IMG/VR virus record: IMGVR_UViG_3300025127_000099
Span: 1 to 38,048 of that record
DNA: 38,048 bases
Strand: one strand, 5' to 3'
From: a virus
Taxonomy: Duplodnaviria > Caudoviricetes
This document shows, in pieces, positions 18,610 through 24,633 of the stretch. The position numbers and the translations under genes were made by a program. The notes under the pieces are model-generated. The model was given only the letters and a program-made list of their open reading frames with translations, had not been told where the DNA came from and searched no databases. The stretch's first letter is position 1; each line of letters starts with the position of its first letter.

Positions 18610-19395
18610 ATGAAAGATGTCCATGTGGCGATCGGTTGGGACTCCCGTGAAATAGATGCTTATCAAGTATGTGAACATTCACTTGTTAGACGTTCGTCTA
18701 TACCTGTAGCTGTAACACCCTTGATGCATAATTCGTTACGGGGTTTTAATTTGTTTGATAGAGAGTGGCGAATAGATAAGAATGGTCAACACTGGGATGT
18801 GTTAGACAATGCCCCTTTTTCTACAGAGTTCAGCCATACTCGTTTTCTCATACCAGAACTAGCAAGACGTAACAAAGTAAAAGGATGGGTAATCTTTTGT
18901 GACTGTGATTTCTTATGGCTTGATGATATAAAAACTTTACTTGACGAACTTGATGATGACTATCCTGTCATGGCAGTTAAATTTAATTATGTGCCTGATG
19001 ATGGTATGAAAATGGATAATAAAATACAAACAAAATATAATTGTAAATTGTGGTCATCTCTCATGGCATTTAATATGAACCACAAAGCTAATAGGAAACT
19101 AACAAAAGGTGCTGTTAACGAAATGAAAGGTCTTGATCTCCATCAGTTTGCGTGGTTATCAAGAGGACCAAATAGTGTTGGAGAAATAAACCCAAGATGG
19201 AATTATGTTCCAGGTATAATGGGAGAGAACACTCCACTCAAACCATCAGCTGTTCACTTTTCTTTAGGTGGACCGTGGATGAAAGATTATGCTGATTGTG
19301 ACTTTTCAGATAAGTGGTTTGCTGAAAAGGCTCACATGGATTATCAAGATGGATCAACATTAAAGGACATGAAATGCCTACATTTTCACTTGTAA
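18610..19395 (+). CDS. Glycosyltransferase (GT-A fold, GT8-like)
   Basis: IGWDSRE..AYQVCEHSL, STEFSHTRFLIP, FCDCDFL (DxD), WSSLM.FN..H, WNY...HFSLGGPW. Confidence 0.8.
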   Translation: MKDVHVAIGWDSREIDAYQVCEHSLVRRSSIPVAVTPLMHNSLRGFNLFDREWRIDKNGQHWDVLDNAPFSTEFSHTRFLIPELARRNKVKGWVIFCDCDFLWLDDIKTLLDELDDDYPVMAVKFNYVPDDGMKMDNKIQTKYNCKLWSSLMAFNMNHKANRKLTKGAVNEMKGLDLHQFAWLSRGPNSVGEINPRWNYVPGIMGENTPLKPSAVHFSLGGPWMKDYADCDFSDKWFAEKAHMDYQDGSTLKDMKCLHFHL

Positions 19396-21005
19396 CATCG
19401 TTCCGGGGCGATCACTGGAATCTTTATGCCAAAGATTGTATAGAGAGTTTTATCAAATACTGGCCTGAAGACACGAAACTCTATGCTTATTACAACGATT
19501 GGCCTGAACGTGGTCTTCAATCGTACGATCCCAAAAGAGTAGAGTTCATAGATATAATGGGTTCTTCTCAAGAACTGTGCGAGTTTTTTAAAAGGTACAA
19601 AAGCCCAAAGGATACACCAAACTGGAGAACAGATGTTAAACGATGGGCATACAAAGTCTACACTGAGTATGAGTTCTTTGTAAAAAATCCACCAAAGTGT
19701 GATGTGGGTATATGGATTGATGCTGATACCGTAACATACAACGACATACCAAAAGCTAAACTTGAAGAGTGGATGCCTAAAGATAAAGACATAGCTGTGC
19801 TTGGTCGTGAGGCAGTAAATTATATAGAAGCTGGTTTTGTTATGATGCAGATGACAGAACTTAATAAAGCTTTGTTTGCAGATTTATTTGGAGTGTGGGA
19901 CTCTGGTGAAATTTATAATTATAAAGAATGGCACGATGCTTTTGTGTTTACTAGAATCATGAATCTACATCAAGCACACGGCTTACAAGTTAATAATCTA
20001 TCACCATACTGTGCTGATCTCAATGCATTTGAAGCATCGCCACTTGTTAGGTATATGTATCACAATAAAGGTTTGTTAAAATTTAAACAAGAACAAGCTA
20101 ACCAAGAGGCACCGAACACAAAAGTCAAAGCAAAGAAAACAGAAGATTCAAATAAAAAACCTATAGTGGTAACACCACAGGACTGTATGCCTATTGAAGA
20201 TATTCGTATGAATATACTTACAAATGCCAAACGTATGCCTACGGCTATAACCAAACGATGTCAGTGGAATGATGAAGAGGTAGCTATCGTATCAGCTGGT
20301 CCGTCTCTTAAAAAAAGTTTTAGAGAAATACAACAACTACAGAACAGAGGGGTTAGGATTGTATGTGTTAAGCATAGTCACAATACACTTCTTGAAAATA
20401 ATATTCAACCGTGGGCATGTACAATTTTAGATCCAAGACCCTTCAATGAAAAATCTACACATGGTTATGTACGTAAAGAATTGTTAGCTGAGCCACATCC
20501 ACGAGTAATGTATTGGGTGGCAACTATGTCCAATCCTGATGTGGTTACACACTTACTCGATAAAAAAGCAAAGGTTGTAGCTTGGGATGCTTATTGTAAT
20601 GCAATAGAGGGATGGGACTTTTTTAAAGATAGACTGCTTATTACCGGTGGCACGTGTGCTGGTATGAGGTCAATAGGTTTGTTACATACACTTGGGTTCA
20701 GAACAATGCATCTATATGGTTTTGATTCGTGCATCGAAGGTGAACCAGAAAACAAAGATGAGTTAGCTGAAGACGGTCGTAAGAAATGGTTGAAGGTATC
20801 GGTCGGTGAAGACAATAAGCCATATTGGACAACAGGTGAATTACTGGCTCAAGCTCAAGACTTTGAGAAGCTTATGCAAAGAGAAGAAATAGATCTTGAT
20901 ATTCACGTTCATGGTGATGGTTTGGTCAAAGCATTATGGGACGATGGGTTAAAAGATAAGATAGAAAAAACAACATACAAGGAGATCTTCGATGACATCC
21001 CGTAA
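19374..21005 (+). CDS. Fusion of a GT-A glycosyltransferase with a Maf/MptE-like (DUF115) domain
   Basis: N-half: RWAYKVY, IWIDADT, EAGF, EWHDAFVF, H.KG. C-half: AIVSAGPSL, LDPR, GGTCAG.R...L...LGFRTMHLYGFDSC. Confidence 0.7.
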   Translation: MPTFSLVTSFRGDHWNLYAKDCIESFIKYWPEDTKLYAYYNDWPERGLQSYDPKRVEFIDIMGSSQELCEFFKRYKSPKDTPNWRTDVKRWAYKVYTEYEFFVKNPPKCDVGIWIDADTVTYNDIPKAKLEEWMPKDKDIAVLGREAVNYIEAGFVMMQMTELNKALFADLFGVWDSGEIYNYKEWHDAFVFTRIMNLHQAHGLQVNNLSPYCADLNAFEASPLVRYMYHNKGLLKFKQEQANQEAPNTKVKAKKTEDSNKKPIVVTPQDCMPIEDIRMNILTNAKRMPTAITKRCQWNDEEVAIVSAGPSLKKSFREIQQLQNRGVRIVCVKHSHNTLLENNIQPWACTILDPRPFNEKSTHGYVRKELLAEPHPRVMYWVATMSNPDVVTHLLDKKAKVVAWDAYCNAIEGWDFFKDRLLITGGTCAGMRSIGLLHTLGFRTMHLYGFDSCIEGEPENKDELAEDGRKKWLKVSVGEDNKPYWTTGELLAQAQDFEKLMQREEIDLDIHVHGDGLVKALWDDGLKDKIEKTTYKEIFDDIP

Positions 21006-21900
21006 AGTAGTAGGAGTATTTTTAAATTCAGCTGTGCATCAGCCACATATTAATACACTGACAGCTATGACTCATGGCATCAGAGAAACAACAGATAACC
21101 TTGTGTTCTTATCTAACTCAACTAAATATATGGATTGTGATATAGCCGTTATATTTGGATCGTGGAAAGATAGACACACAAAACATCACTTATTAAAAAA
21201 AGATGTGGTTACTAAACATAAAGGTGACTTGCTTGTAATTGAAACACCATTGCTTGGACGAACTATAACAGAAGATCATAGATATTATAGAGTTGGTAAG
21301 GGTCACTACATGGATACCCTTGGTTATTTTAATAATAAAAAATCTGACAAAGATAGATGGGGTATCCTACGAACCGATCTTGGTTTAGACATAAAAGATT
21401 GGAGAAAAGATGGTAAACATATAATGTTTCTTATGCAGTTGCCTGGAGATGCGGCAACAGCTAATGTTGACATACTTAAATGGTTACAGGATGAGATAGT
21501 TAAATGTAAAAAAATATCTGACAGACCTGTTAGAGTTCGTATGCATCCGTTAATATCATCTTATGACCTATCTAAATTTGAAGAGTTTGTGGAAAAACAA
21601 AAAGATGTCAGCATGGTATTCGGACATAAAAATCCGATTGCGATGGATTTGGAAGATTGTTGGGCTACAGTTTCGTTTACAAGTGGAGGGGCTGTGGATA
21701 GTCTCCTTGCTGGTATCCCTGTTATTACACCTAGTAATCTTAACTTTGCTTATCCAATATCATCCCATTCCATTGAAGATGTAGAAAATCCAAAGATGGA
21801 AGATCGTCAACAATTATTTAATGATATTGCATACACACAGTGGACAATAACAGAGATGGCACATGGATTACCTTACAAACATTTAATTAATAATGACTGA
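20992..21900 (+). CDS. Capsule-biosynthesis (KpsC/KpsS-like) glycosyltransferase
   Basis: MQLPGD, VRVRMHP and TSGGAVDSLLAGIPV match the Q..D / HP / S..G.EAL..G.PV motifs of this family. YTQWT C-terminus. Confidence 0.65.
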   Translation: MTSRKVVGVFLNSAVHQPHINTLTAMTHGIRETTDNLVFLSNSTKYMDCDIAVIFGSWKDRHTKHHLLKKDVVTKHKGDLLVIETPLLGRTITEDHRYYRVGKGHYMDTLGYFNNKKSDKDRWGILRTDLGLDIKDWRKDGKHIMFLMQLPGDAATANVDILKWLQDEIVKCKKISDRPVRVRMHPLISSYDLSKFEEFVEKQKDVSMVFGHKNPIAMDLEDCWATVSFTSGGAVDSLLAGIPVITPSNLNFAYPISSHSIEDVENPKMEDRQQLFNDIAYTQWTITEMAHGLPYKHLINND

Positions 21901-22216
21901 TAATAAAGATAAAGATAAAGATGTTGTTGTGCATCTATTTAAAGACAAGTCTGAGCACATAATGTCAAAGGATGCAGTCAGTCAAATGCCACAGGATAAT
22001 TTTACAAACATAGTTGTTGATCATTTAGATGTCATTAAGGAAGATGCTAATAAATATAAAGCTACCGGTATCATAACTGTTTTGTTTGATGATCGAGGCC
22101 CTATCATAGATTATTTTGCAGGTAGTGTTAACTTAAACTCAGCCTATGTTTTGATGGACCAACTAAAGGGTGTTATATTAGATAAGATAGAACAAGCACA
22201 AGAGGGAATTGAATAA
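21893..22216 (+). CDS. Hypothetical protein
   Basis: Overlaps both neighbours, with phage-like codon use. Confidence 0.6.
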   Translation: MTDNKDKDKDVVVHLFKDKSEHIMSKDAVSQMPQDNFTNIVVDHLDVIKEDANKYKATGIITVLFDDRGPIIDYFAGSVNLNSAYVLMDQLKGVILDKIEQAQEGIE

Positions 22217-22626
22217 TGTTAACAGCACTTATAGGTCCAGTCACTGGGCTACTTGATAAATTCATAGAAGACAAAGACCAAAAAGCACGTCTGGCTCACG
22301 ACATAGCTACCATGTCCGAAAAACATGCGAATGCTTTGGCAAAAGAACAGGCTAAAGCTAACACCGAAGCAGCTAAACATCCGAGTATGTTTGTAGCCGG
22401 TGCAAGACCTGCAATCATGTGGGTGTGTGCAATCGGTTTATTTGTAAACTTCTTTATCTTACCACTAATGACTTGGTTCACAGCTTTGTTTGCACCAGAA
22501 ATAAATATGCCAAACTTTGTGGACACAGGTGAACTTATTTCTCTGACCATTGCATTACTCGGCATGGGTGGACTCCGTAGTTGGGAAAAGACAAAAGGGG
22601 TTGCAAGAGAGAATATGAAGAAGTAA
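22216..22626 (+). CDS. 3-TM holin (GTA holin / DUF3154-like)
   Basis: LIGPVTGLLDKFIEDKDQK, EA.H.SMFVAGARPAIMWVC, LLGMGGLRSWEKTKGV. Confidence 0.85.
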   Translation: MLTALIGPVTGLLDKFIEDKDQKARLAHDIATMSEKHANALAKEQAKANTEAAKHPSMFVAGARPAIMWVCAIGLFVNFFILPLMTWFTALFAPEINMPNFVDTGELISLTIALLGMGGLRSWEKTKGVARENMKK

Positions 22627-22629
22627 AAT
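22601..22629 (+). promoter_or_regulatory. Sigma70 promoter for the pqqA unit
   Basis: TTGCAA (22601-06)-N17-TAAAAT (22624-29). The predicted start near 22636 lies at the foot of the leader hairpin. Confidence 0.6.
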
Positions 22630-22637
22630 AAAAAGAT

Positions 22638-22693
22638 CAGTGGACTGCGGTCATTCGATGACAACCAGCACTGTTTGTTAACCTATAAACAAA
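22638..22693 (+). promoter_or_regulatory. Structured 5' leader of pqqA (two hairpins)
   Basis: CAGTG/CACTG (22638-42/22669-73) encloses CTG/CAG and GTCAT-TCG-ATGAC. TTTGTT/AACAAA (22674-79/22688-93) follows directly before the GGAG SD. Confidence 0.55.
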
Positions 22694-22703
22694 TGGAGTT
22701 GAT

Positions 22704-22778
22704 ATGTGGTCTAAACCTATTATCACAGAAATAGCAGTCGGTCTTGAGATCAATAGCTATGCATGTGCAGAAAAATAA
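22704..22778 (+). CDS. pqqA: Pyrroloquinoline quinone precursor peptide PqqA (24 aa, MWSKPIITEIAVGLEINSYACAEK)
   Basis: GGAG SD at 22695-98. W-x-x-P N-terminus and G-[LMF]-E-x-x-x-Y core (E15, Y19). Typical length. Followed by a terminator hairpin. Confidence 0.9.
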   Translation: MWSKPIITEIAVGLEINSYACAEK

Positions 22779-23067
22779 TATAGTAGTGGGAGCCTTAGTG
22801 CTCCCTTTACTTCTTTCATTTTGCGATCCAGTTGTAGCTACTAACGGTAGACTATACGATCAACTCAATCAATATTACGTAACTTGCAGACTAACCAAAG
22901 AACAGATAGTCAAACCTTTTTTTGGAGAAGATTCTGTCAAATGCTTTTATACATGCACAGATAAGGATACTATGGTTATAACAACGCATAGTAATTTTGC
23001 TTGTGAAAAACAAATACAGAGTCCAAGAGGAGACAAAAGAGATTGGAGAGGTCGATTGAAATACTAA
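22759..23067 (+). CDS. Putative exported Cys-rich small protein (start uncertain)
   Basis: Signal-like KNNIVVGALVLPLLLSFC followed by four more Cys. Overlaps the pqqA 3' end and its hairpin. Confidence 0.45.
   Translation: MHVQKNNIVVGALVLPLLLSFCDPVVATNGRLYDQLNQYYVTCRLTKEQIVKPFFGEDSVKCFYTCTDKDTMVITTHSNFACEKQIQSPRGDKRDWRGRLKY
22788..22821 (+). terminator. Rho-independent terminator after pqqA
   Basis: GGGAGC-CTTAGT-GCTCCC stem-loop followed by the T-rich TTTACTTCTTTCATTT. Confidence 0.6.
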
Positions 23068-23231: not shown

Positions 23232-23657
23232 TTATTTTGTAGCTTGGTCAAGTAAATTACGCACAATTTTTGAAGATGATTCGGTCTTTGTTCCACCTAT
23301 ATTAAATAGCATAGGAATGTTGTGTTCAAAACAATAATCCATCTCTGGTGTGGATGTGGGTATACGATCACCTCCGTTAGCAAAAGCAAATTTAATTTTA
23401 TCTTTACATAAACACTGTAAGTTTTTTACAACTGTATCGTCGTCATCCTTTCCTTTAATAATTTTATCTATATATTTATTTGATTCAACAATTAGTGATC
23501 GTTCATCGTACGATAATACGTTGTAACCTTTCTTTCTTTGTAACCATTTGTCAGTATTTATTATTGCCCATACACTTCCCATTGTACGAGCTTGTTTAAA
23601 CATATTTATATGTCCAGAATGTAGGGGATCAAAGCCCCCACTCACCACTATAATCAT
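23232..23657 (-). CDS. Cytidylyltransferase family protein (TagD/RfaE-like)
   Basis: VSGGFDPLHSGH (HxGH), FANGGDR, K.ESSS motifs. Confidence 0.85.
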   Translation of the reverse strand: MIIVVSGGFDPLHSGHINMFKQARTMGSVWAIINTDKWLQRKKGYNVLSYDERSLIVESNKYIDKIIKGKDDDDTVVKNLQCLCKDKIKFAFANGGDRIPTSTPEMDYCFEHNIPMLFNIGGTKTESSSKIVRNLLDQATK

Positions 23658-23976
23658 GACTTATCCTTGTTATATCGTTTTCATCTAGTTTTTCACCCTC
23701 CCAAATCTCAAAAACCCTTACATGGCCATTAGAAGCACGTAGACAATGAAGTGTATTTCTTGGGATATAAACCCTATGGCCGGGTAGAAATGTCCACCAG
23801 TGATCGTCTATGAGGGCCGTCGCTTCGCCACTTTGTATTTTCCAGTGCTCATCTCTATATTTATGGTATTGAACAGACATTCCTCGACCTGGATACACAT
23901 GTAATATTTTTATAACTCTAGTTGGTGTTTGTTTTAATACTTTGTAATGTCCCCAAGGTCGTGAAACAATATTCAT
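23629..23976 (-). CDS. Cupin, type II mannose-6-phosphate isomerase C-terminal-like
   Basis: RPWGHY, PG..MSVQYHKYRDEHW, IP....H.L, L.ENDI.R motifs. Confidence 0.85.
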   Translation of the reverse strand: MNIVSRPWGHYKVLKQTPTRVIKILHVYPGRGMSVQYHKYRDEHWKIQSGEATALIDDHWWTFLPGHRVYIPRNTLHCLRASNGHVRVFEIWEGEKLDENDITRISHDYSGEWGL

Positions 23977-24065
23977 TATGTAACAGAAAGCATAAAAATT
24001 AATATAAGTTGTATAGCCAACACTGCTAATACAAATTTAAGTAATGACCAAAGAAATCTTTCCAT
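23976..24065 (-). CDS. 29-aa single-TM peptide (MERFLWSLLKFVLAVLAIQLILIFMLSVT)
   Basis: Fills the gap between two genes exactly, with a TAATG overlap into the cupin start. Not in the ORF track. Confidence 0.6.
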   Translation of the reverse strand: MERFLWSLLKFVLAVLAIQLILIFMLSVT

Positions 24066-24066
24066 A

Positions 24067-24633
24067 TTATCTAAACGGTGGACCCATGAACCAACACACT
24101 AAACTGTGTCGAGTTCCCTCTGTTACGGCTTTTATTCTATGAAGATAAAATGAAGGAAATATAATCATATCACCTTTGTTTTTAAATCCTTCAATCGGTT
24201 CTATCTTACCATCCATATTTTTAATTTGTAATATACCACCTTTATAGTCTTCAAAATTAGATAACTGTACAACCATAGATAGTTTTCTAACTAATCCAGG
24301 ATAAGGCCCATCAAACTCTGGAGGATAAATATCTCGGTGCCATTGATAGTGTTGCCCCTTTTTATATTCTGTAAACTGTGGACACTGTAGATTAGTAACA
24401 TCAAACATGTACTCTTCATTGTTTACTTTAGATGCAATTTCACATAACTTAGGGACGATCCAATGATCAAGAGGATACCACCTTACTTTAGAGTTTCTAT
24501 CTTTTTTAAGATTAGCCTCTTTTTTCCACATTACCCCTGCCAACTGTTCAGAATAGTTAGGCGACTCCTTTATCATTTCATCACATAATTTTTCTGGTAC
24601 AGCTTTTGGTATGGTCACAAATGTTTTATACAT
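24067..24633 (-). CDS. 2OG-Fe(II) oxygenase (prolyl-hydroxylase-like)
   Basis: HxD in WHRD, RKLS, YKGG.L, FPSFYLHR, GTRHSLVCW. Confidence 0.88.
   Translation of the reverse strand: MYKTFVTIPKAVPEKLCDEMIKESPNYSEQLAGVMWKKEANLKKDRNSKVRWYPLDHWIVPKLCEIASKVNNEEYMFDVTNLQCPQFTEYKKGQHYQWHRDIYPPEFDGPYPGLVRKLSMVVQLSNFEDYKGGILQIKNMDGKIEPIEGFKNKGDMIIFPSFYLHRIKAVTEGTRHSLVCWFMGPPFR

Follow-up and report, generated by a model that had tools for sequence, protein, structure and literature searches.

Is the very short open reading frame (ORF) behind the holin gene of a marine podovirus-like phage a genuine pqqA, and why would a phage carry the gene of this PQQ precursor peptide with a structured RNA leader and without the enzymes that process its product? 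The question was raised by a first-pass annotation of the window, by which we mean the whole analysed stretch of 38,048 nucleotides of viral DNA. ORF and profile annotation showed the window to be a podovirus-like phage fragment with two converging arms, the plus-strand arm holding virion genes and the holin and the minus-strand arm PolA, the primase-helicase and a B12-dependent reductase. The features of the cassette and its surroundings are as follows.

22216-22626, plus strand: holin (PF11351, phrog_3427), upstream of the pqqA cassette.
22601-22629, plus strand: sigma70-type promoter-like site TTGCAA-17-TAAAAT, with the -35 box inside the 3' end of the holin gene and the -10 box at the holin stop.
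22639-22672, plus strand: conserved structured RNA leader; its stacked helices are interrupted by a 2-nt 5' bulge, a bulged C and an AA bulge, and its loop is variable.
22671-22703, plus strand: second hairpin region and Shine-Dalgarno (SD) sequence GGAG (22695-22698); this stretch aligns colinearly with the leader of rpoH in G006, a TMED127 genome.
22704-22778, plus strand: pqqA, encoding a 24-residue PQQ precursor peptide with E15 and Y19 (by translation, PF08042 and TIGR02107).
22759-23067, plus strand: conserved ORF of 102 amino acids whose start lies within pqqA, in a different frame, and which extends across the terminator-like hairpin.
22788-22815, plus strand: terminator-like hairpin (22788-22805) followed by a T-rich tail; both fall in the 5' portion of the downstream ORF.

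The first-pass annotation had read a 24-codon ORF behind the holin as PqqA. The ORF indeed starts 77 nt after the end of the holin gene, and its translation gives the 24 residues that had been proposed. Its scores exceeded the cut-offs of both profiles for this family, with 33.8 bits against 21.1 for PF08042 and 36.8 bits against 20 for TIGR02107, which bears out the identification. Extrapolation from 3 of the 64 parts of IMG/VR gave an estimate of 3700 stretches with a match to a degenerate pqqA pattern, and 119 of the 120 returned matches lay inside short ATG-started ORFs. Fourteen of the 120 were of the GLEIN type seen in the window, while the rest (approximately 105) were of another type that we take to be Methylophilaceae-like. 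Many copies of the latter type have promoter boxes of their own and simple 5' hairpins, without the leader of the window. With a second pattern, in which the Glu and Tyr codons were left free, an estimated 400 stretches of alphaproteobacterial type were found, and all 118 returned matches (95 distinct DNA sequences) kept both residues, with both synonymous codons of each in use; as this pattern fixes other conserved residues, badly decayed copies of pqqA are invisible to it. Pairwise comparison of 26 distinct close pqqA sequences, a set picked by their shared first five and last three residues and hence biased towards conservation, gave 2086 synonymous and 583 non-synonymous codon differences, and codons 13-24 of the same sequences gave 1223 and 0, respectively. 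Both the conservation of the Glu-Tyr pair and the synonymous excess agree with the earlier reading, and we conclude that the ORF is a real, intact and conserved pqqA.

The gene resides in a bona fide phage genome, flanked by virion, holin and replication genes and with a near-complete relative. This relative, the viral record G197 (58,972 bp), shares 7.9 kb with the window at 85% identity and contains one pqqA. The closest cultured relatives were the Pelagibacter phages HTVC115P/104P/103P by polymerase and HMO-2011 by reductase, and the hosts of these phages, at 45-61% identity, are SAR11, SAR116 and roseobacters. The window shares the podovirus-like replication module (PolA, primase-helicase and B12-dependent reductase) with the HTVC103P-type pelagiphages and HMO-2011, but it is only 45% (polymerase) and 61% (reductase) identical to them and its cassette is unmatched in the GenBank phage set, where neither tblastn with the peptide nor blastn with the cassette gave a meaningful match. 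Among 12 loci with holins at least 92% identical to that of the window, nine had the cassette adjoining the holin and three did not, and no pqqA was found in the partial records of these three cassette-free phages. No match to the pqqA pattern was present within the DNA fetched for 68 further loci with approximately 50% identical holins. The pqqA cassette is accessory and dispensable at the holin site. On both sides of the meeting point of the two arms (18610-21900 and 23232-24633) the window also contains glycosyltransferase-like, MptE-like, cytidylyltransferase, mannose-6-phosphate-isomerase-like and 2OG-Fe(II) oxygenase genes.

The window had been said to lack pqqB, pqqC, pqqD, pqqE and any radical-SAM gene, and none of these families was found among the 46 main ORFs scanned of the 96 listed. 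The same picture emerged from a set of 50 long pqqA-bearing viral records, of which 10 had a completeness of 90% or more. No record contained pqqC and none scored over the cut-off for pqqE; two weak radical-SAM-like matches were seen, while the same pqqC and pqqE models gave matches in host genomes as positive controls. Likewise, none of four near-complete viral records had pqqB, pqqD or a PQQ dehydrogenase, all of which are present in the host genome G006. The absence of the processing genes from near-complete records, including that of the relative G197, supports the first-pass view of the phage pqqA as a stand-alone precursor gene without processing enzymes.

A GTDB scan with the C-terminal core of the window's peptide returned 101 loci, and 75 of the 80 loci listed belonged to records titled uncultured Alphaproteobacteria, Rickettsiales or Pelagibacteraceae. 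Two of the remaining five listed loci were phage-like contigs in bins of unrelated bacteria. The cassette-bearing phage contigs L538 (G014:C51) and L539 (G015:C7), the second of which is a relative of the window's phage, are placed in GTDB bins titled Maricaulis and Flavobacteriaceae, likely through binning errors. The genomes MED657, AG-892-F10, CM1_5m.P40, TMED13 and AG-896-A16 belong to TMED127/Methylaequorales according to PMC12542740, where these bacteria are described as uncultured, abundant surface-ocean methylotrophs with a PQQ- and lanthanide-dependent methanol dehydrogenase and a PQQ module, and where xoxF5 is their top transcript, making up 16-57% of the transcripts of one genome. 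We found an AEK-ending PqqA core in 38 of 42 genomes of the TMED127 order, with one to four copies in each, and a pqqC match in all 13 genomes tested, in 12 of them over the cut-off. Aligned over 23 residues, the phage peptide and the commonest host peptide agree at 19, among them the last 13. A shorter PqqA core occurred in 33 of 401 sampled Alphaproteobacteria, and the non-TMED127 copies among those listed end differently. Because the last 13 residues match and the genomes carry the processing enzymes, TMED127/Methylaequorales is the likely host of the window's phage. The alphaproteobacterial type of the core, as first proposed, could thereby be narrowed to the pqqA of this order. The proposed host with pqqB-E also fits, since these genes, absent from the phage records, are present in TMED127 (in G006 including pqqB and pqqD), a host assigned by likeness of peptide and leader. 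Host pqqA copies often have a promoter box of a different kind; a strict pattern of it was found in 18 of 98 host upstream regions and in none of 102 phage regions, and the window has no match to it.

The cassette had further been credited with its own promoter, SD sequence and terminator. The promoter-like site was found and has nine of 12 consensus matches, but as a single site it is not above chance (seven such sites in the region against 10.1 in shuffled sequence); what stands out is its conserved position. Of 71 distinct sequences upstream of the leader, 39 have a -35/-10 pair at this same place, against 1.9 ± 1.3 after shuffling, and 52 have a -10 box 4-11 nt 5' of the leader, against 16.7. 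From this placement the leader is predicted to start the transcript. The SD sequence was found as described, 5 nt before the ATG. The terminator is less certain, because the hairpin lies within the conserved ORF at 22759-23067, and as a single site it is at chance level (one found, 1.0 expected); it may be a leaky terminator or a partly coding feature. In eight RNA runs, the contigs over the region were of low depth and also covered the holin and the downstream DNA, and cannot show a transcript of the cassette. In two RNA studies a contig ended near the terminator (22804 and 22810), and in one of them another contig continued past it.

The overlapping ORF has 48 homologues, and its three nearest Atlas clusters are all viral; scanned from an upstream TTG, it gave no Pfam family above the cut-off. 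A homologue is present in 26 of 76 leader-bearing cassettes and is common to two unrelated phage families. Three of these 26 cassettes are without the ATG, and there the start would fall at the base of the hairpin, a possible alternative start. The hydrophobic N-terminus and paired cysteines of the predicted product suggest an exported protein.

The proposed hairpin leader proved to be real and far more conserved than a single sequence could show. A 34-nt element is common to the upstream regions of GLEIN-type viral pqqA genes, lying 19-40 nt before the ATG, between promoter and start codon. In an alignment of 36 distinct rows, 99% of the cells were paired and eight of the 11 pairs had changed on both sides, a level reached in none of 500 shuffles and compared with at most one pair in slid controls, although the rows are related. 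One pair accepts U-G in nine of the 36 rows, which indicates a structure on the sense strand. One unpaired G, the bulged C and the AA bulge were invariant in all 36 rows. No match to Rfam 15 was obtained at the gathering score. At E values up to 10, the only match was to a microRNA; it fell on the terminator and was rejected as chance.

When the motif alone was searched for, all 113 returned viral matches were followed by pqqA, one of them cut by the contig end, and with two variant patterns this was the case for 22 of 27 matches, including one frameshifted gene. The leader is present in some 45 of the 102 distinct regions that precede GLEIN-type pqqA in phages. The genes adjoining the leader cassettes include the window-type holin, GroES, T4 gp59, IscU and a desaturase-family gene, and since these neighbours differ between the holin family, the GroES-linked family and T4-like phages, the leader crosses phage families, podovirus-like and T4-like. 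On the cellular side, it was not seen in the upstream regions of TMED127 pqqA genes (98 distinct regions, after exclusion of three phage-like loci) or in those of 40 pqqA copies in a sample of the alphaproteobacterial class. Simple hairpins at the place of the leader were seen by eye in many host and other phage pqqA copies.

To look for the leader outside phages, a covariance model was searched over 42 genomes of the TMED127 order and 151 of the class. The leader was found in one of 42 and one of 151, the same genome in both cases, the class search having low power as 45 candidates were scored per genome. This genome, G006, is AG-896-A16 of the TMED127 genus CACBWF01, and the leader immediately precedes rpoH, the gene of the heat-shock sigma factor (343 bits on TIGR02392 against a cut-off of 323). 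No second site was detected in G006 or four relatives at E values up to 10. The two other genome matches (G014 and G015) were phage-like contigs in bins of unrelated bacteria and not cellular sites. The rpoH gene is flanked by a pseudouridine-synthase gene of rluD type and a gene that we take, from its sequence, to be of purA type, and three metagenome contigs have the same neighbours as far as they reach. Of 119 motif matches in JGI metagenomes, 86 were before pqqA, four before rpoH and 29 likely due to chance. The latter lay in DNA of 43-74% GC, and in 24 of them one or both of the helices tested are disrupted. The possibility of a single-cell amplification chimera was ruled out by four metagenome contigs, some of them divergent, with the same arrangement. 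The sole clear cellular home of the leader is thus the rpoH leader of one TMED127 lineage, which is new here.

From the hairpin through to the start codon, a stretch that also takes in the second hairpin and the SD sequence, the G006 leader is 83% identical to that of the window, and it is the best match of 17.4 kb of the window in G006. Its nearest phage leaders are those of the window's phage family (0.78-0.84 after the motif, median 0.58), and this sharing ties the family to a TMED127 host. In a midpoint-rooted RpoH tree of 30 rows, from which two frameshifted loci and one unparsed locus were left out, the four leader-bearing rows formed one branch (SH-aLRT 99). The 26 rows without the leader had no SD sequence, and in 14 of them a strict test placed a promoter immediately 5' of the ATG; rpoH therefore looks leaderless in these members of the order. 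The simplest reading of these sequences is a single gain of the leader in the rpoH lineage of G006, and we lean towards the view that it passed from a phage of the window's family to the host rpoH. Just upstream of the -35 box, 22 of the 26 rpoH genes without the leader have a direct-repeat box, the reverse complement of which resembles a repeat before the host pqqA, hinting at a DNA-binding regulator that rpoH and pqqA of TMED127 may share. Over their first 50 coding bases, pqqA and the G006 rpoH looked alike at the DNA level (score 45 against 24 for shuffled sequence). We put this down to chance, given a score of 25 for the sister rpoH L599 and equally high scores for host pqqA copies.

What the leader does is less clear than where it occurs. 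Our preferred reading, held tentatively and with somewhat less than even confidence, is a portable expression element bound by a host factor: the rpoH site and the absence of the leader before cellular pqq genes speak for a portable element over a PQQ-only sensor, and the invariant bulges suggest a bound partner. Host RNA polymerase would make a short transcript beginning with the hairpin, and a host-side factor, either a protein or a small molecule, would bind the invariant bulged bases and set the translation or lifetime of the message.

A plain 5' stabilising hairpin for a very abundant short message, the bulges of which reflect recent spread of the cassette, is possible but somewhat less likely than the portable element. 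The location of the leader at the predicted 5' end, the simple hairpins at the same place in many host and phage pqqA copies and the occurrence before two unrelated genes all fit this explanation. However, a mere stabiliser hardly accounts for bases that stay invariant in every row while most of the pairs have changed on both sides, and the divergence of the attached peptides and phage backbones indicates that the spread was not only recent.

The leader may instead be native to rpoH of the host lineage, for instance as a thermometer or stress switch, and have been taken up by phages so that pqqA is timed to host stress or so that a factor controlling rpoH is soaked up. The chromosomal rluD-type, rpoH and purA-type context in G006 and the three metagenome contigs agrees with this, and as 42 genomes of the order were sampled, further lineages may have been missed. 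We nevertheless consider this direction doubtful, as the leader-bearing rpoH genes form one shallow clade nested among 26 genes without an SD sequence, and diversity is far greater among the phage leaders than among the host copies, the latter grouping with the window's phage family.

It is also unlikely, though conceivable, that the leader is a ligand- or protein-sensing switch that couples pqqA to the state of the methylotroph host in several phage families and was captured by a host lineage for rpoH. If true, this would be a case of phage-to-host transfer of a regulatory RNA and would give a handle on how lanthanide- and PQQ-dependent methanol oxidation is steered during infection. The narrower version, a riboswitch aptamer for PQQ, a pathway intermediate or a metal such as a lanthanide that switches pqqA translation, appears slightly less likely still. 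It draws on the small, strongly covarying fold with invariant unpaired bases, on the near-exclusive link to pqqA across unrelated phages and on a predicted competition with SD pairing. When 79 distinct but related leaders were folded, forcing the motif freed the SD sequence more than with shuffled linkers (0.175 against 0.020; 57 of 79). On the other hand, the mean energy of the motif fold is about 5 kcal/mol higher than that of the free ensemble. In the window the SD sequence is predicted to be paired both with and without the motif fold, which does not suit a simple ON switch. Moreover, the leader precedes none of the TMED127 or class-sample pqqA copies, and its one clear cellular site is before rpoH, with no obvious link to PQQ, so that the gene associations point to no single ligand.

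Regarding the peptide itself, the cassette probably supplies extra PqqA to the PqqB-E enzymes of the likely TMED127 host. PqqE together with PqqD joins the Glu and Tyr of PqqA, as described in PMC5715301. According to PMC9851590, the pathway consumes the peptide, whereas its enzymes can serve repeatedly. Extra peptide would pass through host PqqB-E and keep the PQQ-dependent methanol dehydrogenase supplied during infection. The phage would add only the consumable part, mirroring the extra pqqA copies of its hosts, presumably with higher PQQ as the outcome. A counterpoint is that the host already has up to four pqqA copies. In addition, the overexpression results of PMC7936290 show that pqqAB increased the output of Acetobacter by 29%, in comparison to 8-fold for the whole cluster pqqABCDE, and precursor alone may therefore not limit PQQ output. 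The alternative named in the first-pass annotation, a decoy that titrates PqqD/PqqE and would thus lower host PQQ, gains something from a pqqA carried without any enzyme and from the saturation of the chaperone that an excess of peptide could cause. It is very improbable, however, because the Glu and Tyr were kept in all 118 matches, which is what a processable substrate would show, and because the phage peptide shares them, like its entire C-terminal half, with the host peptide.

The novelty implied for a phage pqqA did not hold, as a viral PqqA was reported in 2020 for the Lake Baikal population VP_266 and proposed to support host methanol oxidation in the respective section of PMC7678222 (Coutinho et al. 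2020), and viral pqqA is also listed in PMC13188868. The window resembles VP_266 in its phage-encoded PqqA and the methanol-oxidation support proposed for it. VP_266 comprises T4-like freshwater phages with predicted Methylophilaceae hosts that also encode methanol dehydrogenase, whereas the window is marine and podovirus-like and has pqqA alone, with an alphaproteobacterial peptide and a likely TMED127 host; the VP_266 section of PMC7678222 mentions no structured leader, such as the window has. The ExxxY core, the size and the occurrence as stand-alone copies away from pqqB-E are shared with cellular PqqA (PF08042, TIGR02107), for which dispersed extra copies are described in PMC9851590, five in the strain of that study. 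In contrast to the cellular genes, the copy in the window is on a phage, without the host promoter box and with a sigma70-type promoter and an RNA leader. The leader is similar to the candidate viral RNAs of PMC10690425 in being a short covarying hairpin in a phage 5' untranslated region; the searched part of its supplements contained neither the motif string nor pqqA, and the leader may be among the unnamed candidates. The sections of PMC11996626 drawn on here mention neither pqqA nor phages. In a literature search that covered few subscription papers, none was found on the leader, on TMED127 phages with pqqA or on a link to rpoH. The less known part is thus the RNA leader and its sharing with the host rpoH, while the pqqA gene is of a reported kind.

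With 75 bp, the gene is below ordinary gene-calling limits, and given some 3700 matching stretches, phage input into PQQ may be common and largely unseen. The cassette can serve as a sequence tag that links phage families to the TMED127 order. As the leader is short, synthesizable and strongly covarying and stands before two unrelated downstream genes, its ligand or binding protein is directly testable.

The settings of pqqA in other phages are varied. In the T4-like carriers L490, L360, L617 and L363 the cassette lies beside genes of the fatty-acid-desaturase family, for IscU/IscA-type Fe-S assembly or for SoxYZ-like fusions, which could support radical-SAM or PQQ-dehydrogenase function. In the phage loci L340, L345, L357 and L379, pqqA directly follows a sequence that by eye is tmRNA-like and that may be the tag-coding region and 3' end of a tmRNA.
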